A DNA stretch of 64,000 nucleotides from an uncultured Fidelibacterota bacterium. Lineage in GTDB: Bacteria; Fidelibacterota; Marinisomatia; Marinisomatales; Marinisomataceae. Positions within the stretch are counted from its first letter, which is position 1. Every line of letters starts with the position of its first letter. The position numbers were made by a program, and so were the translations under genes. The stretch spans positions 221,908-285,907 of the forward strand of contig CACBFQ010000002.1 in NCBI GenBank assembly GCA_902538565.1. The letters run 5' to 3'. The notes under the pieces are model-generated. The model was not told the DNA's origin, did not search any database, and was given only the letters and a program-made list of their open reading frames with translations. Of this stretch, positions 22,438 to 58,938 are shown in pieces.

Positions 22438-24033
22438 TTATATTCCAAAAGATTCTTCCCATTCACCATAAACTTTTTTCATTACTTCTACGATTTCGCC
22501 TACAGTACCACCTTGTTCTGCAACCTCTATCAAAAAAGGAACTAAATTTAAATCTTTTTTACAAGCATCGCTTAGTTTTTTCATCTTTTCTTGAAATTTT
22601 TTTTCATCTCGACTTTTTCTAAGAGTTTTTATTTTGTTTTCTTGAGTATCTTGAGCATCTCTTGAAATTTTGAGAATCTCTATATCTAACTCTTCGTCTT
22701 CCTCAATAAAATCATTTACTCCAACAATTATTCTTTCTTTTGAATCAACTGATTCTTGATAAATAGATGCAGATTCAGCTATTTTTTTTTGAAAATAACC
22801 ATCCTCAATAGCTTGTACTGTTCCGCCCATCTCTTGAATTTCTTCAAAGTACTTAATAGCTTGTTTTTCAAGTTTGTCAGTCAATTCTTCAATATACCAT
22901 GATCCACCAAGAGGATCAGCTACATTAGATACTCCAGTTTCAAAAGCTAGAATTTGCTGTGTTCTAAGCGCTATTTTTGCAGCTTTTTCAGAAGGTAATG
23001 CTAAAGTTTCATCCAATGAATTTGTATGAAGTGAATTTGTTCCACCTAACACTGCTGACATTGCTTCAAAGGCTGTTCGAACAATATTATTTTCTGGCTG
23101 TTGAGCTGTTAATGAACATCCTGCTGTTTGAGAATGAAATTTAAGTTTTAATGAACTTTCATTTTTAGCGCCATATTTATCTTTTAATCTATTTGCCCAA
23201 ATTCTGCGAGCAGCTCTATACTTAGCAATTTCTTCAAAAAAGTCCATATGAGCATTAAAGAAAAAAGATAATCTATGGGCAAAATCATCTATTTTTAATC
23301 CTCTTTCTAAACACTCTTCAATATATGCAAATCCATTATTGAGTGTAAAAGCAAGCTCTTGTGCAGCAGTAGATCCAGCTTCTCTAATATGATATCCGCT
23401 GACTGATACAGGGTTGTATAATGGCATGTTTTCAGAACAGTATTCAATGATATCAACAACAAGTTTAACAGATGGTTCAGGAGGAAAAATCCACTCTTTT
23501 TGAGCCATGTATTCTTTTAATGCATCATTTTGTAAGGTTCCTCTCAATTTACTGACATCTATTCCATTTTTCTTAGCAAGTGCTACATAAAATGCAAAAA
23601 GAATAATTGCAGGACCATTTATTGTCTGTGATACTGAAATTTTTTCAAGGTCTATTCCATCAAAAAGAATTTCCATATCCTTTAAGGAAGCTACATTTAC
23701 ACCACAGACACCAACCTCTCCTGAAGATAACTCGTGATCTGGATCATAACCCATTAAAGTTGGCATATCATAAGCTACAGATAAGCCAGTTTGACCATTT
23801 TTAAGTAAATATTTGTATCGTTCATTAGTTTTTTCTGGTGTACTAAATCCTGAAAATTGTCTCATGGTCCATAATTTTCCTCTATACATATTCTTATGAA
23901 TACCTCTAGTATATGGGAAACTTCCTGGATCAATATTATAGTTTTTTTCATTATTGGATGATGAGTAGAAGTCCTTCAATTCATCGCCACTAATGCTTTT
24001 AAAACTATCTTTTCTTTCAACTTTTTTACTCAT
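22438..24033 (-). CDS. B12-dependent acyl-CoA mutase, substrate-binding (large) subunit; isobutyryl-CoA-mutase-like
   Basis: FPYTRGIH, WTMRQFSGF, GQTGLSVAYD, SVSGYHIREAG, NSLDET; no C-terminal DxHxxG B12-binding domain; specificity residues F60 and Q178. Confidence 0.85.
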   Translation of the reverse strand: MSKKVERKDSFKSISGDELKDFYSSSNNEKNYNIDPGSFPYTRGIHKNMYRGKLWTMRQFSGFSTPEKTNERYKYLLKNGQTGLSVAYDMPTLMGYDPDHELSSGEVGVCGVNVASLKDMEILFDGIDLEKISVSQTINGPAIILFAFYVALAKKNGIDVSKLRGTLQNDALKEYMAQKEWIFPPEPSVKLVVDIIEYCSENMPLYNPVSVSGYHIREAGSTAAQELAFTLNNGFAYIEECLERGLKIDDFAHRLSFFFNAHMDFFEEIAKYRAARRIWANRLKDKYGAKNESSLKLKFHSQTAGCSLTAQQPENNIVRTAFEAMSAVLGGTNSLHTNSLDETLALPSEKAAKIALRTQQILAFETGVSNVADPLGGSWYIEELTDKLEKQAIKYFEEIQEMGGTVQAIEDGYFQKKIAESASIYQESVDSKERIIVGVNDFIEEDEELDIEILKISRDAQDTQENKIKTLRKSRDEKKFQEKMKKLSDACKKDLNLVPFLIEVAEQGGTVGEIVEVMKKVYGEWEESFGI

Positions 24034-25897
24034 TTGATTTCCTTGAAAAATTATAAATCTTTTCGAATAAAGTCATTGAATCTAACCCTATTTCTTCTAA
24101 TAAAATATTTCTTGGTCCATGATCTACAAACCTGTTTGGAACACCTAATGTTAAAATAGAATTTTCAATATTCTTTTTATTTGACCAGTTTATAACTCCT
24201 TCACCAAATCCACCATCTGTAACACCTTCTTCAATTGTAACAACTAATTTATATTTTGGTAAAGATTCATTTAAATAATTTTCATCCATAGGTTTGATAA
24301 ATCTACAGTTAACCACCTCAGAGGAAATACCTTTTTCCATTAGCCTACTATATACTTCTAAGCTCTTACTTACCATTGACCCGACTGCTAAAATAAGTAC
24401 ATCACTTCCTTCTGTTATTACCTCCCATGAGCCTATTTCAATTTTTTGTGGAGATTTTTCTTCAAATTTTACTGACTGTTCTTTAGGGTATCTTATGGTA
24501 AATGGTTTAGTTGTATTTAAAGTTGCAGTATAAAGCAAATCTCTTAACTCATTTCCATCTTTTGGTGCTGAAATAATAATATTTTGAATACATCGTAAAT
24601 AAGAAATATCTAAAACACCGTGATGAGTTGCACCATCCTCACCAACCAAACCAGAACGATCCATACAAAAAATGACAGGTAAATTTTGTAAAGCAATATC
24701 ATGGATTATATGATCAAAGGCTCTTTGAAGAAAGGTTGAATAAATTGCGACTACAGGAATTTTTCCTTCCGTTGATAACCCGCCACTAAAAGTTACTGCA
24801 TGACCTTCAGCGATACCAACATCATAGAATCTTTCCGGAAATCTTGAAGAATATTCAACTAATCCAGTCCCTTCTCTCATTGCAGCAGTTATTGCAACTA
24901 TATTTTTATTTTCTTCTGCTAAATCGCATATTACTTCTCCAAAAACATTCTGATATATTGGAGCTTGCACTTTAGAAATTGTACCATCTTTTTTCTTTTC
25001 TTTAACTCCATGATATTTGATTGGATCATCCTCAGCGTAATCAAGGCCCTTTCCTTTTTGTGTAATTGTATGCAACACAACAGGGCTATCATAATTTTTT
25101 ATATTTTCCAAAATCTCTACCATTTCTTCGATATTGTGACCATCAACTGGACCAAAATATCTAAAACCTAGATCTTCAAAAACTGTTGTAGGTAAAAAAA
25201 AATTTTTAGCACTTGATTCAGCTTTTCTTAAAAGAGTTTCTACGACTTTCAAACTATTTGGAAGTTTTTTTATAGTTCGATAAATCCATCTTCTCAATCT
25301 ATTATATTGTTTATTGGTCGCAATTTTAACAAGATAGTTTCTAAACGCACCTACATTAGGACTAATAGACATATCATTATCATTAACAATAACAAGCATT
25401 TGCTTTCTTATATTCCCAGCATTATTAAGGGCTTCAAAAGCAAGACCACCAGATAAGGCTCCATCACCAATAATACTTACAACTTTAAAGTCATCATTCT
25501 CTAAATTTCTACTAACAGCCATTCCTAAACCAGCTGAAATTGCTGTTGATGCATGACCAGCACCAAAAACATCATATTCACTTTCAGATCGCTTTAAAAA
25601 ACCACTTAACCCTTTATATCTTCTGATAGTTGGGAATTGACTATATCTACCTGTAAGAACTTTATGAGCATATGCCTGATGACCGGTATCCCATACAATT
25701 TTGTCTCTTGGAGCATCGAAAACATAATGAACAGCAGTTGTTATTTCAACTGCGCCAAGAGTTGGAGCTAAATGTCCTCCTATTTCATTAATTGTATCAA
25801 TAATATAAGTGCGAAGCTCTTTGCATACTTCTCCTAATTCCTCTTTTGGAATATTTTTTAAATCTTTTGGAGAATTAATCTTATCTAGATATTTCAT
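24026..25897 (-). CDS. dxs: 1-deoxy-D-xylulose-5-phosphate synthase
   Basis: WDTGHQAY.HK, FGAGHASTAISA, IGDGALSGG, YFGPVDGH, DVGIAEGHAV. Start moved to ATG 25897 (MKYLDKI); the track start is 25921. Confidence 0.97.
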   Translation of the reverse strand: MKYLDKINSPKDLKNIPKEELGEVCKELRTYIIDTINEIGGHLAPTLGAVEITTAVHYVFDAPRDKIVWDTGHQAYAHKVLTGRYSQFPTIRRYKGLSGFLKRSESEYDVFGAGHASTAISAGLGMAVSRNLENDDFKVVSIIGDGALSGGLAFEALNNAGNIRKQMLVIVNDNDMSISPNVGAFRNYLVKIATNKQYNRLRRWIYRTIKKLPNSLKVVETLLRKAESSAKNFFLPTTVFEDLGFRYFGPVDGHNIEEMVEILENIKNYDSPVVLHTITQKGKGLDYAEDDPIKYHGVKEKKKDGTISKVQAPIYQNVFGEVICDLAEENKNIVAITAAMREGTGLVEYSSRFPERFYDVGIAEGHAVTFSGGLSTEGKIPVVAIYSTFLQRAFDHIIHDIALQNLPVIFCMDRSGLVGEDGATHHGVLDISYLRCIQNIIISAPKDGNELRDLLYTATLNTTKPFTIRYPKEQSVKFEEKSPQKIEIGSWEVITEGSDVLILAVGSMVSKSLEVYSRLMEKGISSEVVNCRFIKPMDENYLNESLPKYKLVVTIEEGVTDGGFGEGVINWSNKKNIENSILTLGVPNRFVDHGPRNILLEEIGLDSMTLFEKIYNFSRKSNE

Positions 25898-26459
25898 ATT
25901 TTCCTTTGAAACAAATTTCATGTATTAAAGTTTCATTCAATAGTTCAGGATGACAAGAAATTCCAATATGTATTCCTTGCTTTACTGCAACTACTTCTTC
26001 CTGAAAGGTTGCTAAAACTTCAACATCGTTATTTATTTTATCTATTTTTGGAGCTCTAATAAATAATACATCAATATCAGAACTAATTGAGCCATCTGTA
26101 ACATTAATTTTAGCTTCAAAAGAATGAACTTGTCTTCCATAAGCATTTCTGCTTGTTATTACATCTAAAAAAGCAAAGTTATGTACCCTTGAGTCGTTAG
26201 ATTCTTTAGACATTAAAATAAGTCCAGCACATGAACCTAAAATTGGCTTTTTCTTAGAAAGCTTATTAATACCATCCATCAAGCTCTGATTCTTTCTCAA
26301 GAGATTAGTTATTGTTGTAGATTCTCCCCCAGGAATTATAAGACCATCAACAGAACTTAGATCATCGCTCGTTTTAACTAGCTTATGTTTTAAGTTAATT
26401 TTTTTAAGAATTTTAATATGAGAATCAAAATTTCCTTGAAGTGCAAGGACACCAATCAC
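25881..26459 (-). CDS. pdxT: PLP synthase glutaminase subunit PdxT
   Basis: IGVLALQG, IPGGESTT, GSCAG (Cys), RNAYGRQ, FIRAP, CHPE (His-x-Glu). Confidence 0.96.
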   Translation of the reverse strand: MIGVLALQGNFDSHIKILKKINLKHKLVKTSDDLSSVDGLIIPGGESTTITNLLRKNQSLMDGINKLSKKKPILGSCAGLILMSKESNDSRVHNFAFLDVITSRNAYGRQVHSFEAKINVTDGSISSDIDVLFIRAPKIDKINNDVEVLATFQEEVVAVKQGIHIGISCHPELLNETLIHEICFKGKYEISR

Positions 26460-26461
26460 AA

Positions 26462-27334
26462 TTAGTCGCCTCTATTTGAAAATTTTTCATCTTCAGGAAT
26501 GTCAGACATTAAAATTCCCTTCATTGCGTCTTTTAAATCATAAGAAGCAGTTAAAACATCTTTTGCACTCTTAAAATGTGTAACAGCTTTAACAATTGCA
26601 TGAGCTCTTTCAGATGGATCTTGGCTTTTAAAAATACCAGAACCAACAAAAACTGTTTCAGCGCCCAGTTGCATCATTAAAGAAGCATCTGCAGGAGTAG
26701 CAATTCCTCCAGCAGCAAAATTAGGAACCGTTAGTTTTTGATTTTTAGCCACCTCTTCTACTAAATCTAAAGGAACTCTAAATTCTTCTGCCTTTTTCGA
26801 TAAATCAGCATCTTGTAGATCAATAATTTGTGAAGTAATCATTTTCATATGCCTTACAGCTTCAACAATATTTCCACTACCAGCTTCTCCTTTAGTTCTA
26901 ATCAATGCAGCCCCTTCATTTATTCTTCTTAGGGCTTCACCTAAGTCTCTTGCTCCACATACAAATGGAACCTTAAAAGGATGTTTATCAACATGAGCAT
27001 GTTCGTCAGCCGTTGTAAGCACTTCACTTTCATCAATGAAGTCAACTTCTAAGGCCTCTAAAATTTGTGCTTCAGCAAAATGACCAATTCTACATTTTGC
27101 CATAACTGGTATTGAAACATTATCCTGTATTTCTTTAATCATGTGAGGGTTGCTCATTCTTGCAACACCACCATCTTTTCTAATATCCGATGGAATTCGC
27201 TCTAAAGCCATAACAGAAACTGCTCCTGCATCTTCTGCAATTTTAGCTTGTTCTAAATTAGTAACGTCCATAATTACCCCACCTTTTAGCATCTCTGCTA
27301 AACCGACTTTAACTTTGAAAGACTCTTTACTCAT
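26462..27334 (-). CDS. pdxS: PLP synthase lyase subunit PdxS
   Basis: [48 protein letters not shown]. Confidence 0.98.
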
Positions 27335-28193
27335 GAATTATTTCCTTTTCTTGTGTATTTGTTATTTCTTTGACTTTTTTAATTACTGATTCGATTATCC
27401 AGTCTGGAGTTGAAGCTCCGGCGGATATTCCTACAGAATTTACATCATCTTTAAACCAAGATGAATCAATTTCTGCAGCACAAGTCACCTGAAATGTATT
27501 TTCATTCCTTTTTGAGCTCAATTCAGCTAGACGTTTGGAATTAGCGCTTGTAAATGATCCAATAATAATCATTAAGTCAGTTACTTCAGACAACTCTTTA
27601 ATTTGTTCTTGATTTCTTTTGGTTGGAAAGCAAATTGTATTAACAAATCTTAAATCAAATACTTTTGTCATTAAAACGTTTATAATATCTTGCACGTTTT
27701 CGATTGTTTGGGTTGATTGAGTTACAACTCCAGCTTTCTTTGTTTTTCTAAGTGCTTCAGCTTCTTCTACTGAAGCAACAATCACTGGATCTGGTATTTG
27801 ACTAGCAATTCCAATTACTTCATCGTGACCATGGTCTCCAATAATGATAATTTTTCTTCCTTCTTTATGTAATGCTTTTACTTCATGATGTATTTCATGA
27901 ACTAAAGGGCATGTAGCATCGATAATATTCATTTTTTTATCTTCAGCTTTTTTCCAGACCTCTTTTGCAGTACCGTGAGCTCTGAAAAGAACAGGTTTGT
28001 CTTTTGGAATCTGATCAAGTTTCTCAACAACTTTTACACCTTCTTTTTCTAAATCACTTACGACACTTTCATTATGAACAATATCTCCCAACATATAGAC
28101 TTCTCCATATTTTTTGCTCATTTCGTAAGCGCTATTTACAGCATCTCTTACTCCAAAACAATATCCAGCATCTTTAGCTAAAATTATCTTCAT
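27327..28193 (-). CDS. ispH: 4-hydroxy-3-methylbut-2-enyl diphosphate reductase
   Basis: Three Fe-S Cys ([20 protein letters not shown]), [24 protein letters not shown]. Confidence 0.96.
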
Positions 28194-29175: not shown

Positions 29176-29715
29176 TTACCTCTGCCAAGTATTTTCAGGA
29201 ATATTATTTTGTTTATTATGATATCTTGAAAGAACAAAGAAATAATCTGATAAACGATTTAAATACATTATTACGGGATTATTATCCAAAGAATTATTGT
29301 ATAATGTTACAGCCGATCTTTCAGCTCTTCTAGTAATTGCTCTAGCAACATGTAAATTTGATGAAAAATGATCTCCGCTTGGTAAAATAAATTCTTTTAG
29401 AGGTTCTAAGTCTTGGTTAAGATAATTTATTTGATCGTCTAAATCTGAAATCATGTTTTCATTTATGATAGAATTATCTTCAAGATTCATTGAAATATGT
29501 CCACCTATATCGAATAAATTATTCTGAATTTTTTTTAAGAACTCTGTTATATCTGAGTTTTGGCTAAATGATAAGCAAACTCCAATGATACTACTTAATT
29601 CATCTACCTCTCCAAGACAATGAATAATATTATTAGACTTAAGGACTGATTCTCCTTTGGCTAAGTTTGTTTTACCGCTATCTCCATTTCTTGTAGTAAC
29701 TTTTGTAATTCTCAT
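29176..29715 (-). CDS. pduO: PduO-type ATP:cob(I)alamin adenosyltransferase
   Basis: MRITKVTTRNGDSGKT, GEVDELSS, QNNLFDIG, LKEFILP, RAITRRAER, YLNRLSDYFF. Start moved to ATG 29715, which overlaps the nhaD TAA. Confidence 0.92.
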   Translation of the reverse strand: MRITKVTTRNGDSGKTNLAKGESVLKSNNIIHCLGEVDELSSIIGVCLSFSQNSDITEFLKKIQNNLFDIGGHISMNLEDNSIINENMISDLDDQINYLNQDLEPLKEFILPSGDHFSSNLHVARAITRRAERSAVTLYNNSLDNNPVIMYLNRLSDYFFVLSRYHNKQNNIPENTWQR

Positions 29716-31028
29716 TACATCATACCTGACAGCCATAGATGGGTTAGAATGCTGAAAACATATCCAATGAAAATTACTCCAGTCCATCTAAGATGACTTG
29801 AAAATGTATAAATTCCCTTTGCTTGACCCATCAAAGCAACACCAGGTGCAGAACCAATTGAAAGCAAACTTCCACCAACTCCTGCGGTAAGAGTAATTAA
29901 AAGCCACTGATTTAAGTCCATGGTAGTAGTATCATGCATTTGAATCACAGAAAACATGACAGGTATGTTATCAATTAATGCAGATATAATTCCCATCAAA
30001 GAGTTTGCAATAGTAAAACCAAGACCATCGTAAAGTGTAGTATTTATCAGTGCCAAATAACCAATTTTTGAAAGTCCAGCTACACAAAGTATTACTCCAT
30101 AGAAAAATAATAAGGTATCCCACTCAGCTTGAGCAATTTGCTTAAATACTCCAAATGGTTGATCTGAGCCATCACGAGAAATTTTGCTCTCTGCAGAATA
30201 AGTTCTTTTCAAATAATAACCAAAAAGTTGCAAAAGACTCAATCCAAACATCATACCAAATACTGGAGGAAGCTTAAGGAATTGTTTAAAGGAAATTGCC
30301 ATCATAATTGTAACAAGGAATAAACAGCTAATAGTCACAGCACCTCGTTTTAACAACACAGGAGGATTTTCAACTTCATCCGCAGAACCATCAATGAAAA
30401 AACTCATAATAAATGCCGGAATAATAAAATTTACTAATGAAGGTAAAAAGAGTTTGAAAAATTGCAAAAATTCAACGTAACCAGCCTGCCAAACCATTAG
30501 TGTTGTTATATCTCCAAAAGGACTAAAAGCACCACCAGCATTAGCAGCTACAACAATATTGACACAACTTATACTTGTAAAATTTTTATTGCCTTTTCCC
30601 ACAGCTAATACCACTGCACACATTGTAAGTGCAGTTGTTAAGTTATCCGCTATAGGTGATAAGAAAAATGAAATAAACCCAGTAATCCAAAATAATTTTT
30701 TATAACTAAAATTTTGATTTAGAAGAATAGAACGCAATTTTTCGAAAACATTTCTCTCAGTCATTGAATTTATATAAGTCATCGCCACTAAAAGGAAGAG
30801 CATCAACTGATTAAATTCATCAAAAGCATGCATCAATTCTTTTTTGACAGCATAAGAATCTCCTGTTTGCACTCCTACCCAAGCGATCATTGCCCAAATA
30901 ATTCCTGCAGCAAAAAGCACGGGCTTAGACTTCCTTAAGTGCGTAACCTCCTCTGTCATCACAAAAGCATATGCAATGATAAAAAGGACTATCGATATAA
31001 TTCCAACTGGATGATTCAATAATTCCAT
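29715..31028 (-). CDS. nhaD: Na+/H+ antiporter NhaD
   Basis: EEVTHLRKSKP, LLVAMTYIN, SPIADNLTT, AANAGGAFSPFGDITT, IDNIP, GGSLLSIGSAPG. Confidence 0.92.
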   Translation of the reverse strand: MELLNHPVGIISIVLFIIAYAFVMTEEVTHLRKSKPVLFAAGIIWAMIAWVGVQTGDSYAVKKELMHAFDEFNQLMLFLLVAMTYINSMTERNVFEKLRSILLNQNFSYKKLFWITGFISFFLSPIADNLTTALTMCAVVLAVGKGNKNFTSISCVNIVVAANAGGAFSPFGDITTLMVWQAGYVEFLQFFKLFLPSLVNFIIPAFIMSFFIDGSADEVENPPVLLKRGAVTISCLFLVTIMMAISFKQFLKLPPVFGMMFGLSLLQLFGYYLKRTYSAESKISRDGSDQPFGVFKQIAQAEWDTLLFFYGVILCVAGLSKIGYLALINTTLYDGLGFTIANSLMGIISALIDNIPVMFSVIQMHDTTTMDLNQWLLITLTAGVGGSLLSIGSAPGVALMGQAKGIYTFSSHLRWTGVIFIGYVFSILTHLWLSGMM

Positions 31029-56691: not shown

Positions 56692-56877
56692 AAAATAAAG
56701 TTTAAAGTTTTATAGCAATTGTAGGGAATAAAGTGAAAAACTTTAGCAGTCCCCGCTACTGTAATTACTGAGATTTAATAATAGCCATTCAACATTGTTG
56801 GAGAAGGAATTAAATCATTTTAGGTATAAGCCAGGAGACCTTATTTGCAAAAATATTAATAAACTTCGGAGGAAAGT
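56692..56877 (+). ncRNA. Cobalamin (AdoCbl-class) riboswitch
   Basis: AGGGAA, P4 aaag-tgaaaaa-cttt, GCAGTCCCCGCTACTGT, extension gatttaat/attaaatc with GCCATT...GAAGG, B12 box AAGCCAGGAGACC; immediately upstream of a TonB-dependent receptor. The 5' boundary is approximate. Confidence 0.92.
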
Positions 56878-58938
56878 ATGATGAAAAAATCATATATATT
56901 ACTAATAGTATTAATATCAAATCTGTTTGGACAAACTTTTACTGGTAATGTTAAGGACGTATCTGGAACTGAAATATCTTATGTTGTAATTGAAGAATTA
57001 AATTCAGAGTCACAAGAAAGAAATTGGACAATTTCAGATGAGAGTGGTGGTTTCTCAATCAATATCAATAGTGAATCAGATGTTTTATTTCAAAGAATAG
57101 GATTTAAAGATGTCGTTGTAAAACCAGACCAATTCGGTAAATCTATAATTATGGTCAAAGAAGATATATCACTTGAAGAAGTTGATGTGTATGGTAAGAA
57201 AAAAGAGGTATATCTTAAAAATAAGACTTTATTAAATAATTTAGGAATTTATTCAAGAGGTGGATCTCTTAATCAAATTCCTTCTCTAGAAATGAGGACC
57301 TATGGTGGATATGCTGGAGTCACCTCCGCATCTTTTGACGGTGGATATGCTAGACATACAAAAGTTCTTTACAATGGAATTGATTTGACTGATGCAATGA
57401 ATGGTCAGGTTGATCTTTCTACTCTACCTTCTTTCGCTCTCCAATCTGTTAATTACAGATTAAATTCTGGAACAAAATTTGGTTCTGGCTCTATTGATGG
57501 TTCACTAAACATTAATAATAATATTTTAAATAATAATGTATTCTTTAGTGTAGGAGATTTTGGATTTTCACAGTACGGAGCTAATTATTCTATAAACAGA
57601 AAAACTTCAAAAAGAAATATTTCATTTGGTAAAACCTCATATGATGGAGATTATAAATATTCTGATTCCTCAGGAAATAAGGTTAAACGATTAAATAATT
57701 ATTTAGATCAATTTTTTCTTTCTGTTGATAGACAATTTCTTATCAGAGAAGACTTTCTACTAAATATATTTACACTGGTAACTGAGAATGTTAGAGGAGC
57801 ATCAGGGAGTACAAGTTTTCCATCACCGAATGCCACAAGAACGGATGACTTTGAATTATTTGCTTTATCCTTCAATAAGTTTTTTGAAAATGGTTCACTT
57901 GATTTGTATATGAATAGATCAAATAATTACCAAGAATTTGATGATTCAGAAGGATCTTTCCCAATTTATAGTGAACACGCACTTGACTATTCAGCTTTTG
58001 GGTTCAAAGGAAATCAAACAATAAATCCGTCTTTTAATTATGAAGCTGTTTTCAATATAAAATCTGAACGAGTTGACAGCACTGAATTACAAAAAGAAGA
58101 GTTGGAAACAACGTCATTTTCGTTTGTTGGTAATTATGTTAATTCTGACTACGACTTCAAGGTTTCTCCTTCAATGCGCTACGATTCAAGGGAAGAAAAT
58201 AACAAAACAACTTATAATTTAGGGTTTGAAGCAATAAATCAATTTGTTGATTCTGGTAGTTCATTTGACTTTAACCTAGATATAGGTTCATCATTTCAAT
58301 TTCCTACAATGAATGATTTATTTTGGCCAGATGGTTTATATAGTGGAGGCAATCCTAATTTAAAACCTGAAGAAAGTGAATACATTGCACTATCCATCTC
58401 AAATGAATCTTTGATTGGAAAAATAAAAGTAACTGCATCTTTTAAAGATTATGAAAATTTAATATTATGGCAGCCCAACGAATCTTTTAAATATATACCT
58501 ATAAATGTTTCCTCAGCTGAAAGAACGTCTTATAATTTTCAATACTTAAAAGATTTTTCAGACTTACATATGCAATTAACATATAATGTATATGACACTC
58601 TTGATAAAGACGTAGATGAAAAGCTATTATATGTACCTGATAGCTCTGCTAGCTTACTTCTTATATACAAATTAAATAATTTAACTCATTATTCATTAAA
58701 CTATAAGTTAGTTGGCGACAGGATTTTGCAATATCAGTCCTCATTTGCTGAACAAGTAAATGATAAATCATATGGATTACTTAGTCTTGGAGTGTCAAAT
58801 GTTTTTAATTGGGTGGATGAAAATTCAATAGTGCTTAATATGACTGTAGATAATCTTTTAGATGAAGAATATATTTCTACTATTGGTTACCCAGAACCTG
58901 GAAGAAGTATAAATTTAACTTTAGAATATAGGCTTTAG
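56878..58938 (+). CDS. btuB: TonB-dependent cobalamin receptor (BtuB-like)
   Basis: Signal peptide, N-terminal carboxypeptidase-regulatory-like domain, plug (HTKVLYNGI), NPNLKPEES, DNLLDEEY, GYPEPGRS C-terminus. B12 specificity is inferred from the riboswitch. Confidence 0.8.
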   Translation: MMKKSYILLIVLISNLFGQTFTGNVKDVSGTEISYVVIEELNSESQERNWTISDESGGFSININSESDVLFQRIGFKDVVVKPDQFGKSIIMVKEDISLEEVDVYGKKKEVYLKNKTLLNNLGIYSRGGSLNQIPSLEMRTYGGYAGVTSASFDGGYARHTKVLYNGIDLTDAMNGQVDLSTLPSFALQSVNYRLNSGTKFGSGSIDGSLNINNNILNNNVFFSVGDFGFSQYGANYSINRKTSKRNISFGKTSYDGDYKYSDSSGNKVKRLNNYLDQFFLSVDRQFLIREDFLLNIFTLVTENVRGASGSTSFPSPNATRTDDFELFALSFNKFFENGSLDLYMNRSNNYQEFDDSEGSFPIYSEHALDYSAFGFKGNQTINPSFNYEAVFNIKSERVDSTELQKEELETTSFSFVGNYVNSDYDFKVSPSMRYDSREENNKTTYNLGFEAINQFVDSGSSFDFNLDIGSSFQFPTMNDLFWPDGLYSGGNPNLKPEESEYIALSISNESLIGKIKVTASFKDYENLILWQPNESFKYIPINVSSAERTSYNFQYLKDFSDLHMQLTYNVYDTLDKDVDEKLLYVPDSSASLLLIYKLNNLTHYSLNYKLVGDRILQYQSSFAEQVNDKSYGLLSLGVSNVFNWVDENSIVLNMTVDNLLDEEYISTIGYPEPGRSINLTLEYRL

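Follow-up and report, generated by a model that had tools for sequence, protein, structure and literature searches.

The window analyzed here is a stretch of 64,000 nt (contig CACBFQ010000002.1 of assembly GCA_902538565.1, positions 221,908-285,907; all coordinates below are window-based) from a member of the Marinimicrobia (SAR406), a group that ranks with the most abundant uncultured heterotrophs of the dark and low-oxygen ocean. On its minus strand, at 22438..24033, lies a gene for an acyl-CoA mutase large subunit that we label IcmA-like (F/A/Q type, after three specificity residues) and whose probable function is the subject of this report. The open reading frame (ORF) runs from ATG to TAA, translates into 531 aa and has an AAGGA ribosome-binding site just 5' of its start; at this start the gene shares 8 nt with the end of dxs, and its stop is followed 4 nt later by ccmE. 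The product consists of the substrate-binding TIM-barrel domain only, a single PF01642 (MM_CoA_mutase) domain covering residues 15-523 and profile positions 4-512 of 512 (722 bits against a cut-off of 22.1, E 4e-217). A Pfam search of the 531-aa protein revealed no B12-binding domain, in keeping with the initial annotation, which had already described a stand-alone large subunit.

By its family matches and the names of its relatives the protein passes for a methylmalonyl-CoA mutase (MCM). As had been predicted of an automatic pipeline, its close homologues are publicly named 'methylmalonyl-CoA mutase', with or without the additions 'family protein' or 'N-terminal domain/subunit', and it scores 712 bits with TIGR00641 ('methylmalonyl-CoA mutase N-terminal domain', NCBIfam; cut-off 303.8). 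The 612 bits obtained with the MCM equivalog NF006944 fall below its cut-off of 876, though that model describes a fused enzyme of 721 positions and our protein has no B12 domain; with the IcmF equivalog NF045497 it reaches 375 bits, well under the 1500-bit cut-off. Among solved structures (HMMER against the PDB) the top match is HcmA of Aquincola tertiaricarbonis (4R3U; 548 bits, E 1.4e-163, ~49% identity), ahead of human MCM (474 bits) and of IcmF (304 bits, ranked eighth).

Phe60 (codon TTT, 23854..23856) lies in the motif RQFSGF and Gln178 (codon CAA, 23500..23502) in YMAQKEWIF, with a spacing of 118 residues, and the translation bears out the initial annotation in all these particulars; a third position, Ala87, is encoded by GCT at 23773..23775, like the others on the minus strand. 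In HMMER alignments with solved structures, F60 falls on the Tyr of RQY in the human and M. tuberculosis MCMs (Tyr89 in MCM), on position 89 of the P. shermanii MCM, where entry 5REQ, presumably the Y89F mutant of that enzyme, has F, and on Ile90 of HcmA. Similarly, Q178 falls on Arg207 of the MCMs, in the motif MVRNTY, and on Gln208 of HcmA. The assignment of this pair to the Y89/R207 positions thus stands, an off-position alignment being ruled out. Ala87 corresponds to Asp117 of HcmA, which we take to be the residue contacting the substrate hydroxyl; the MCMs also have Ala here. The three-residue signatures are then F/A/Q for the mutase, Y/A/R for MCM and I/D/Q for both HcmA and its Xanthobacter orthologue Xaut_5021. 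The mutase and MCM nevertheless have their core residues in common, namely Y214/H215 (equivalent to Y243/H244) and the Q168 and R58 motifs.

Among 150 representatives of the whole acyl-CoA mutase family (50% clustering), 69 have Y/A/R and 20 a complete F/A/Q, with Q also present in several further fragments; the combination Y..Q does not occur at all, and F..R in just one natural sequence. Because the two positions co-vary across these 150 representatives, the F/Q pairing is a real class marker and not the product of chance. With Gln and Phe in place of the carboxylate-binding Arg and Tyr, the pocket is predicted to be non-polar and to fit an uncharged C4 acyl group. An ethylmalonyl-CoA mutase is unlikely on the same grounds, as a dicarboxylic substrate would have to sit in a pocket that has no Arg.

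The signature is uniform among the closest relatives of the mutase. Its 80 best genomic relatives, from about 15 phyla, all have F/A/Q (80/80, none with Y/R; 86/86 if one counts further close relatives fetched beside these 80). The bacterial phyla represented among the 80 are Marinimicrobia, Ignavibacteria, Bacteroidota, Chlorobiota, Calditrichia, Zixibacteria, Cloacimonadota, Planctomycetota, Actinomycetota, Acidobacteriota, Deinococcus, Bacillota and others, and the F/A/Q relatives also include archaeal metagenome-assembled genomes (MAGs) of the Methanobacteriota and Promethearchaeota. Among 78 orthologue loci, a small B12-binding subunit (~135 aa) is encoded within a few kb in 48 and a MeaB GTPase in ~22. 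The other recurrent neighbours, identified by clustering the ORFs on either side and running Pfam on representatives, belong to beta-oxidation (acyl-CoA dehydrogenase in 26 loci, enoyl-CoA hydratase in 12, thiolase in 10 and 3-hydroxyacyl-CoA dehydrogenase in 6) and to electron transfer, with the electron-transfer flavoprotein (ETF) beta subunit in 12 loci, ETF alpha in 8 and the ETF-quinone oxidoreductase ETF-QO in 14; this recurrent set is that of butyryl-CoA oxidation. An amino-acid dehydrogenase of the Glu/Leu/Phe/Val family is near the orthologue in 5/78 loci.

Some of these loci bear directly on the database label. In three of them, L026 (Zixibacteria), L049 (Ignavibacteriales) and L055, the F/A/Q gene is accompanied by a Y/A/R paralogue that adjoins propionyl-CoA carboxylase genes, and the coexistence of the two as separate genes suggests that they are distinct enzymes. 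A genuine split MCM, that of Ilyobacter, has Y/A/R and is encoded next to genes for an epimerase and for a methylmalonyl-CoA decarboxylase; its identity with the window mutase is still 51%. This identity, the names of the homologues and the TIGR00641 and PF01642 matches are what speaks for an ordinary split MCM large subunit, but the equivalents of Tyr89 and Arg207 are both absent, the score with the MCM equivalog is low (with the reservation noted above), Y/A/R paralogues stand beside F/A/Q genes in single loci and 0/80 of the closest orthologues are Y/R, so that we regard the databases' own reading as highly improbable.

For a phylogeny we used neighbour-joining (NJ) on a curated set (n=48), which replaced a tree of 118 metagenome representatives blurred by fragments and chimeras. 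The Marinimicrobia form a clade with 97.5% bootstrap support, and monophyly of the 28 stand-alone F/A/Q proteins is recovered in 54% of the bootstraps, a value that becomes 72.5% after one long-branch metagenome sequence is dropped and 62% with the signature columns masked. In this set the F/A/Q orthologues outside the Marinimicrobia are 46-64% (mean 58%) identical to the mutase. The mutase thus appears to fall in a multi-phylum F/A/Q clade whose loci resemble operons for isobutyryl-CoA mutase (ICM). The tree is also relevant to the possibility of a 2-hydroxyisobutyryl-CoA mutase (HCM/RCM type), which might be suspected from the rank of HcmA as the top PDB match and from the Gln at the 208 position that the two proteins have in common. 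However, the two HCM sequences, HcmA and Xaut_5021, form a clade with 100% support that excludes the window mutase, and the latter has F/A/Q where they have I/D/Q, lacking both the hydroxyl-binding Asp and the smaller Ile; an enzyme of this type is scarcely credible here.

The main rival is an F/Q-type mutase with a different uncharged main substrate, for example isovaleryl-CoA, pivalyl-CoA or another branched C5 compound, for which butyryl- and isobutyryl-CoA would be a side activity. A passage of PMC10481361, citing Cracan and Banerjee 2012, states that the F/Q-bearing IcmF also isomerizes isovaleryl- and pivalyl-CoA. Moreover, the window offers no catabolic context for the gene, and the family contains many unexplored residue combinations. 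Against this, the orthologue loci are dominated by genes for C4 beta-oxidation (short-chain-type acyl-CoA dehydrogenase, crotonase, 3-hydroxyacyl-CoA dehydrogenase, thiolase) and the bulky Phe is kept. A pivalyl-CoA mutase of the type of Xanthobacter Xaut_5043, presumably the native pivalyl-CoA mutase, was rejected: that protein has L/L/N at the three positions where ours has F/A/Q, and the two are 36% identical. On balance, a different uncharged main substrate seems unlikely.

It is, in our opinion, probable that the gene encodes the large subunit of a split, adenosylcobalamin (AdoCbl)-dependent ICM of the IcmA type in Marinimicrobia. An IcmA-like enzyme was also the proposal of the initial annotation, and at the sequence level it gains support from a family that is uniformly F/A/Q and repeatedly linked to MeaB, a small B12 subunit and genes for butyryl-CoA oxidation. 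The mutase barrel is the substrate-binding part of an AdoCbl-dependent acyl-CoA mutase, and its pocket has the non-polar Phe/Gln for Tyr/Arg and no Asp of the kind specific to hydroxy-acyl substrates. It would pair with a B12-binding subunit of ~135 aa from a separate gene, probably also with a MeaB-type GTPase chaperone, and interconvert isobutyryl-CoA and n-butyryl-CoA by a radical mechanism in which the thioester carbon undergoes a 1,2-shift. Isobutyryl-CoA derived from valine or isobutyrate could in this way enter butyryl-CoA beta-oxidation and yield two acetyl-CoA, with the cofactor presumably supplied by riboswitch-controlled, BtuB-like uptake and a PduO adenosyltransferase, both encoded nearby. 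The parts of this scheme that we infer are its substrate, the flux direction and the presence of the partner subunits in the genome.

Among known systems, four come closest. IcmA, known from Streptomyces cinnamonensis and from split ICM clusters such as Slip_0757-0760 of Syntrophothermus lipocalidus, is likewise a stand-alone protein of ~530-570 aa without a B12 domain, and its two specificity positions are occupied by Phe and Gln, again 118 residues apart (F80/Q198 in IcmA numbering). Enzymes of this type have small-subunit, MeaB and adenosyltransferase partners (PMC5017805), as do the orthologues of the window mutase. The window mutase differs from these clusters in having no partner genes nearby and in being embedded in a dxs-mutase-ccmE housekeeping string; its host, an aerobic or microaerobic marine oligotroph, also differs from the antibiotic producer and the syntroph that harbour IcmA. 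The IcmF of Cupriavidus metallidurans (PDB 4XC6) belongs to the same substrate-domain superfamily, and according to the literature has both the F/Q pair and the isobutyryl-CoA mutase reaction that we propose here. However, it is a fusion of 1,100 aa (B12 domain, MeaB-like GTPase and mutase) whereas ours is a single domain, and the window mutase is much further from it than from HcmA or MCM. HcmA, the closest solved structure, also comes from a split enzyme and agrees with the mutase in its Gln at the Arg207 position, but has Ile90 and Asp117 for Phe60 and Ala87. Finally, the MCMs (human MMUT, 2XIJ; P. shermanii MutB, 1REQ; the split enzyme of Ilyobacter polytropus) have a common fold and core with the mutase at 44-52% identity, yet have Tyr/Arg for its Phe/Gln, and their loci carry epimerase and carboxylase or decarboxylase genes.

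The cofactor genes referred to above are in the window itself. Five genes upstream of the mutase lies a gene for the enzyme that makes AdoCbl, a PduO-type ATP:cob(I)alamin adenosyltransferase (29176..29787, minus strand; TIGR00636, E 1.1e-53; PF01923 in the syntenic orthologue). As listed, this ORF overlaps the CitMHS gene; since TIGR00636 aligns only from residue 31 onwards and the L001 orthologue has 179 aa, the true start is probably Met25 at ~29715, which would also give 179 aa. A cobalamin riboswitch aptamer, the sole Rfam element in the 64 kb, is located on the plus strand at 56723..56841 (RF00174; 72.6 bits, gathering score 31.5, E 5.9e-16), and 36 nt past it begins a gene for a TonB-dependent outer-membrane receptor of 686 aa (56878..58938, plus strand). 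The PDB matches of the receptor are weak (E 1e-8 to 1e-10), comprising the TonB-dependent receptors 8P97 and 8BMX and the vitamin B12 transporters BtuB (8P98) and BtuB1 (8BLW), and Pfam detects the Plug domain alone and weakly (E 3e-5); it is probably a divergent BtuB-like cobalamin importer. The riboswitch, this receptor and PduO together imply that the organism senses, probably imports and can adenosylate cobalamin.

The nearest homologues of the mutase (79-98% identity) are marine-metagenome proteins, the named ones belonging to 'Candidatus Neomarinimicrobiota/Marinimicrobia', and a genome scan found 98% identical copies in the single-amplified genome AH-736-N04 (JAOIOW01) and the MAG CM1_5m.P33 (BOWX01). 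In the window, which has a G+C content of 30%, the gene order is nqr, apbE, CitMHS, PduO adenosyltransferase, DHH, ispH, pdxS, pdxT, dxs, mutase, ccmE and ccmF, and the order from nqr to ccmF is retained in relatives at 80% identity. The ispH/pdxS/dxs/mutase string was confirmed in the Marinimicrobia orthologue L010 (64% identity), ORF sizes point to an L010-like order in L011 and L012, and synteny is thus kept among Marinimicrobia orthologues that are just 62-64% identical. Across 121 Marinimicrobia homologues (79-100% identity), 300 of the 531 positions are invariant; F60, A87, Q178, Y214/H215 and the other core positions examined are so in 121/121. Four marine metatranscriptome runs contain contigs, at least 99% alike, that cover the mutase at word depths comparable with those of dxs, pdxS and ccmF, which suggests that it is transcribed, although contig depth is a coarse measure and carried-over DNA may contribute. 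Marine DNA runs from many studies contain 92-96% of the words of this locus, and the population is therefore widespread.

Several considerations weigh against an ICM. The neighbours of the mutase are housekeeping genes (dxs, ccmE/F, pdxS/T, ispH) and uninformative on the substrate, while overall identity fails to separate the classes (51% with the Ilyobacter MCM, ~49% with HcmA, 46-64% with F/A/Q proteins), a task that the signature does accomplish. The bootstrap support of the F/A/Q clade is moderate and the method simple, and contig depth in metatranscriptomes, open to DNA carry-over, is a poor measure of expression. That the characterized Streptomyces IcmA and IcmF carry F/Q is reportedly to be found in Ratnatilleke 1999, Cracan 2010 and Jost 2015. 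Above all, there is the matter of the missing partners: neither a scan of the ORFs of at least 100 aa for DxHxxG and P-loop motifs nor tblastn with two Ilyobacter queries, its small subunit and its MeaB, detected either protein in the 64 kb, and none was found in the syntenic contigs of relatives. Searches for a SAR406 small subunit further afield had no better outcome. An AT-biased DNA pattern for GLDGHDRGAK applied to JGI metagenomes gave 120 loci but led to other taxa; profile and single-sequence searches returned Ignavibacteria; and cluster look-ups yielded Ignavibacteria, Caldisericia, Melioribacteraceae and Asgard archaea.

Two candidate sources of the small subunit were rejected. Locus L104, which had the best tetranucleotide likeness to the window, turned out to be from Promethearchaeota, tetranucleotides being non-discriminating, and the contig of P0474 has low identity to the window genes. 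Marine metagenome contigs searched with three small-subunit probes gave just AT-rich B12 domains of the fused-MCM type and one fragment of 367 nt of the stand-alone type. The former (…GRRPR…GHDRGAK-LIATAFSDLG…) are from runs X1, X3-X5 and X7 on L166/L127, and the latter (…PGLDGHDRGI…MIVSAALQED…) is from X4; either could derive from SAR406.

The absence of the partners raises the possibility of an orphan: a large subunit left without its B12-binding counterpart in a streamlined genome and either inactive or moonlighting. The failure to find a small subunit or MeaB in the window or by the searches run is what such a history would predict, but decay is difficult to reconcile with the 300 invariant positions, all the active-site positions checked among them, with synteny at 62-64% identity, with the metatranscriptome contigs or with the retention of adenosyltransferase and B12 uptake. 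In S. cinnamonensis, icmA and icmB are themselves unlinked, the classical arrangement, and for this reason the absence of a partner from 64 kb is no evidence against function. All told, we consider an orphan very unlikely, and an ICM with unlinked partners remains our preferred explanation.

The three loci with two mutases have a further feature of interest. In L026:6123-17315, L049:6768-16527 and L055:7035-16572 the order is meaB, F/A/Q mutase, small subunit, pccB, pccA and Y/A/R mutase, so that for two large subunits the loci show a single small subunit and a single MeaB, although they end soon past the second mutase. This hints at a cofactor module common to both mutases, a second small subunit further on being possible. 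Since these clusters from Zixibacteria and Ignavibacteriales suggest one module for two large subunits, one may speculate, with little confidence, that the IcmA-type subunit of SAR406 shares a single B12 subunit and MeaB with a second large subunit of the MCM type in a combinatorial two-enzyme system, its cofactor module passing between the catalytic subunits, or else that ICM is the only acyl-CoA mutase of the streamlined lineage, where it would take the place of the methylmalonyl route for valine carbon and account for part of the B12 demand.

The function of ICM is itself long established, having been described decades ago (PMC2847961). Split ICM clusters with adenosyltransferase and MeaB have been recognized in syntrophs and 'other prokaryotes' (PMC5017805), and a passage of PMC7764203, citing Cracan 2010, contains the caveat that ICM and IcmF are misannotated as MCM; the novelty of our finding is limited accordingly. 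It is an annotation correction that adds a further member to a known enzyme type and involves no new chemistry. Among the papers searched, none names both 'isobutyryl-CoA mutase' and 'Marinimicrobia', and genes of this kind are still entered as mcmA in MAG papers (PMC8359207). The usual reconstructions, which record the gene under that name, imply a propionate/succinate metabolism; an ICM would shift the predicted fate of carbon from valine or isobutyrate to butyryl-CoA and then to two acetyl-CoA, and would name one concrete AdoCbl-dependent reaction behind the B12 uptake machinery of the lineage. The ecological interest is modest, but the re-annotation is useful for an ecologically important lineage and extends to a large F/A/Q orthologue family of at least 15 phyla, archaeal MAGs included.

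With respect to the wider family, dozens of other triplets occur at the three specificity positions, among them V/V/V, L/I/V, I/V/L, V/V/R, Q/D/H and N/V/S (P0121-P0270), and many of the proteins that carry them are full-length stand-alone large subunits, which suggests that there may be substrate classes beyond those characterized. There are also fused F/A/Q mutases. In P0148 the domains follow one another as mutase, B12 domain and MeaB-like GTPase (PDB matches at residues 18-660 and 683-907), unlike the order B12, GTPase, mutase of IcmF; P0184 is alike in length and placement (the two have 887-913 aa), and P0166 and P0237 (677-683 aa) have a length that would accommodate a mutase together with a B12 domain.

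Clusters of an F/A/Q large subunit, a small subunit and MeaB are present in two archaeal MAGs, at L104:9859-12712 (Promethearchaeota/Asgard) and L050:8001-10938 (Methanobacteriota). They are 56-57% identical to bacterial ones, and the small subunit of L104 is that of L195; the ICM-type enzyme would appear either to extend beyond the bacteria or to have been transferred. The nearest representative outside the Marinimicrobia, P0122 (L004:1-2568; 56% identity, F/A/Q), has a thiolase gene directly 5' and no adjacent small subunit; the gene after it (L004:2581-2970) was considered as one and rejected, having no Pfam match.

A last observation concerns the genes of the methylerythritol phosphate (MEP) pathway. 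The mutase lies directly 3' of dxs in one string with ispH (lytB), both in the window (24026-28193) and in L010:3893-9596, and in a Calditrichaceae MAG (L014:5559-9506) the orthologue is close to ispG (gcpE). This recurrent link may be no more than the chance synteny of compact genomes.

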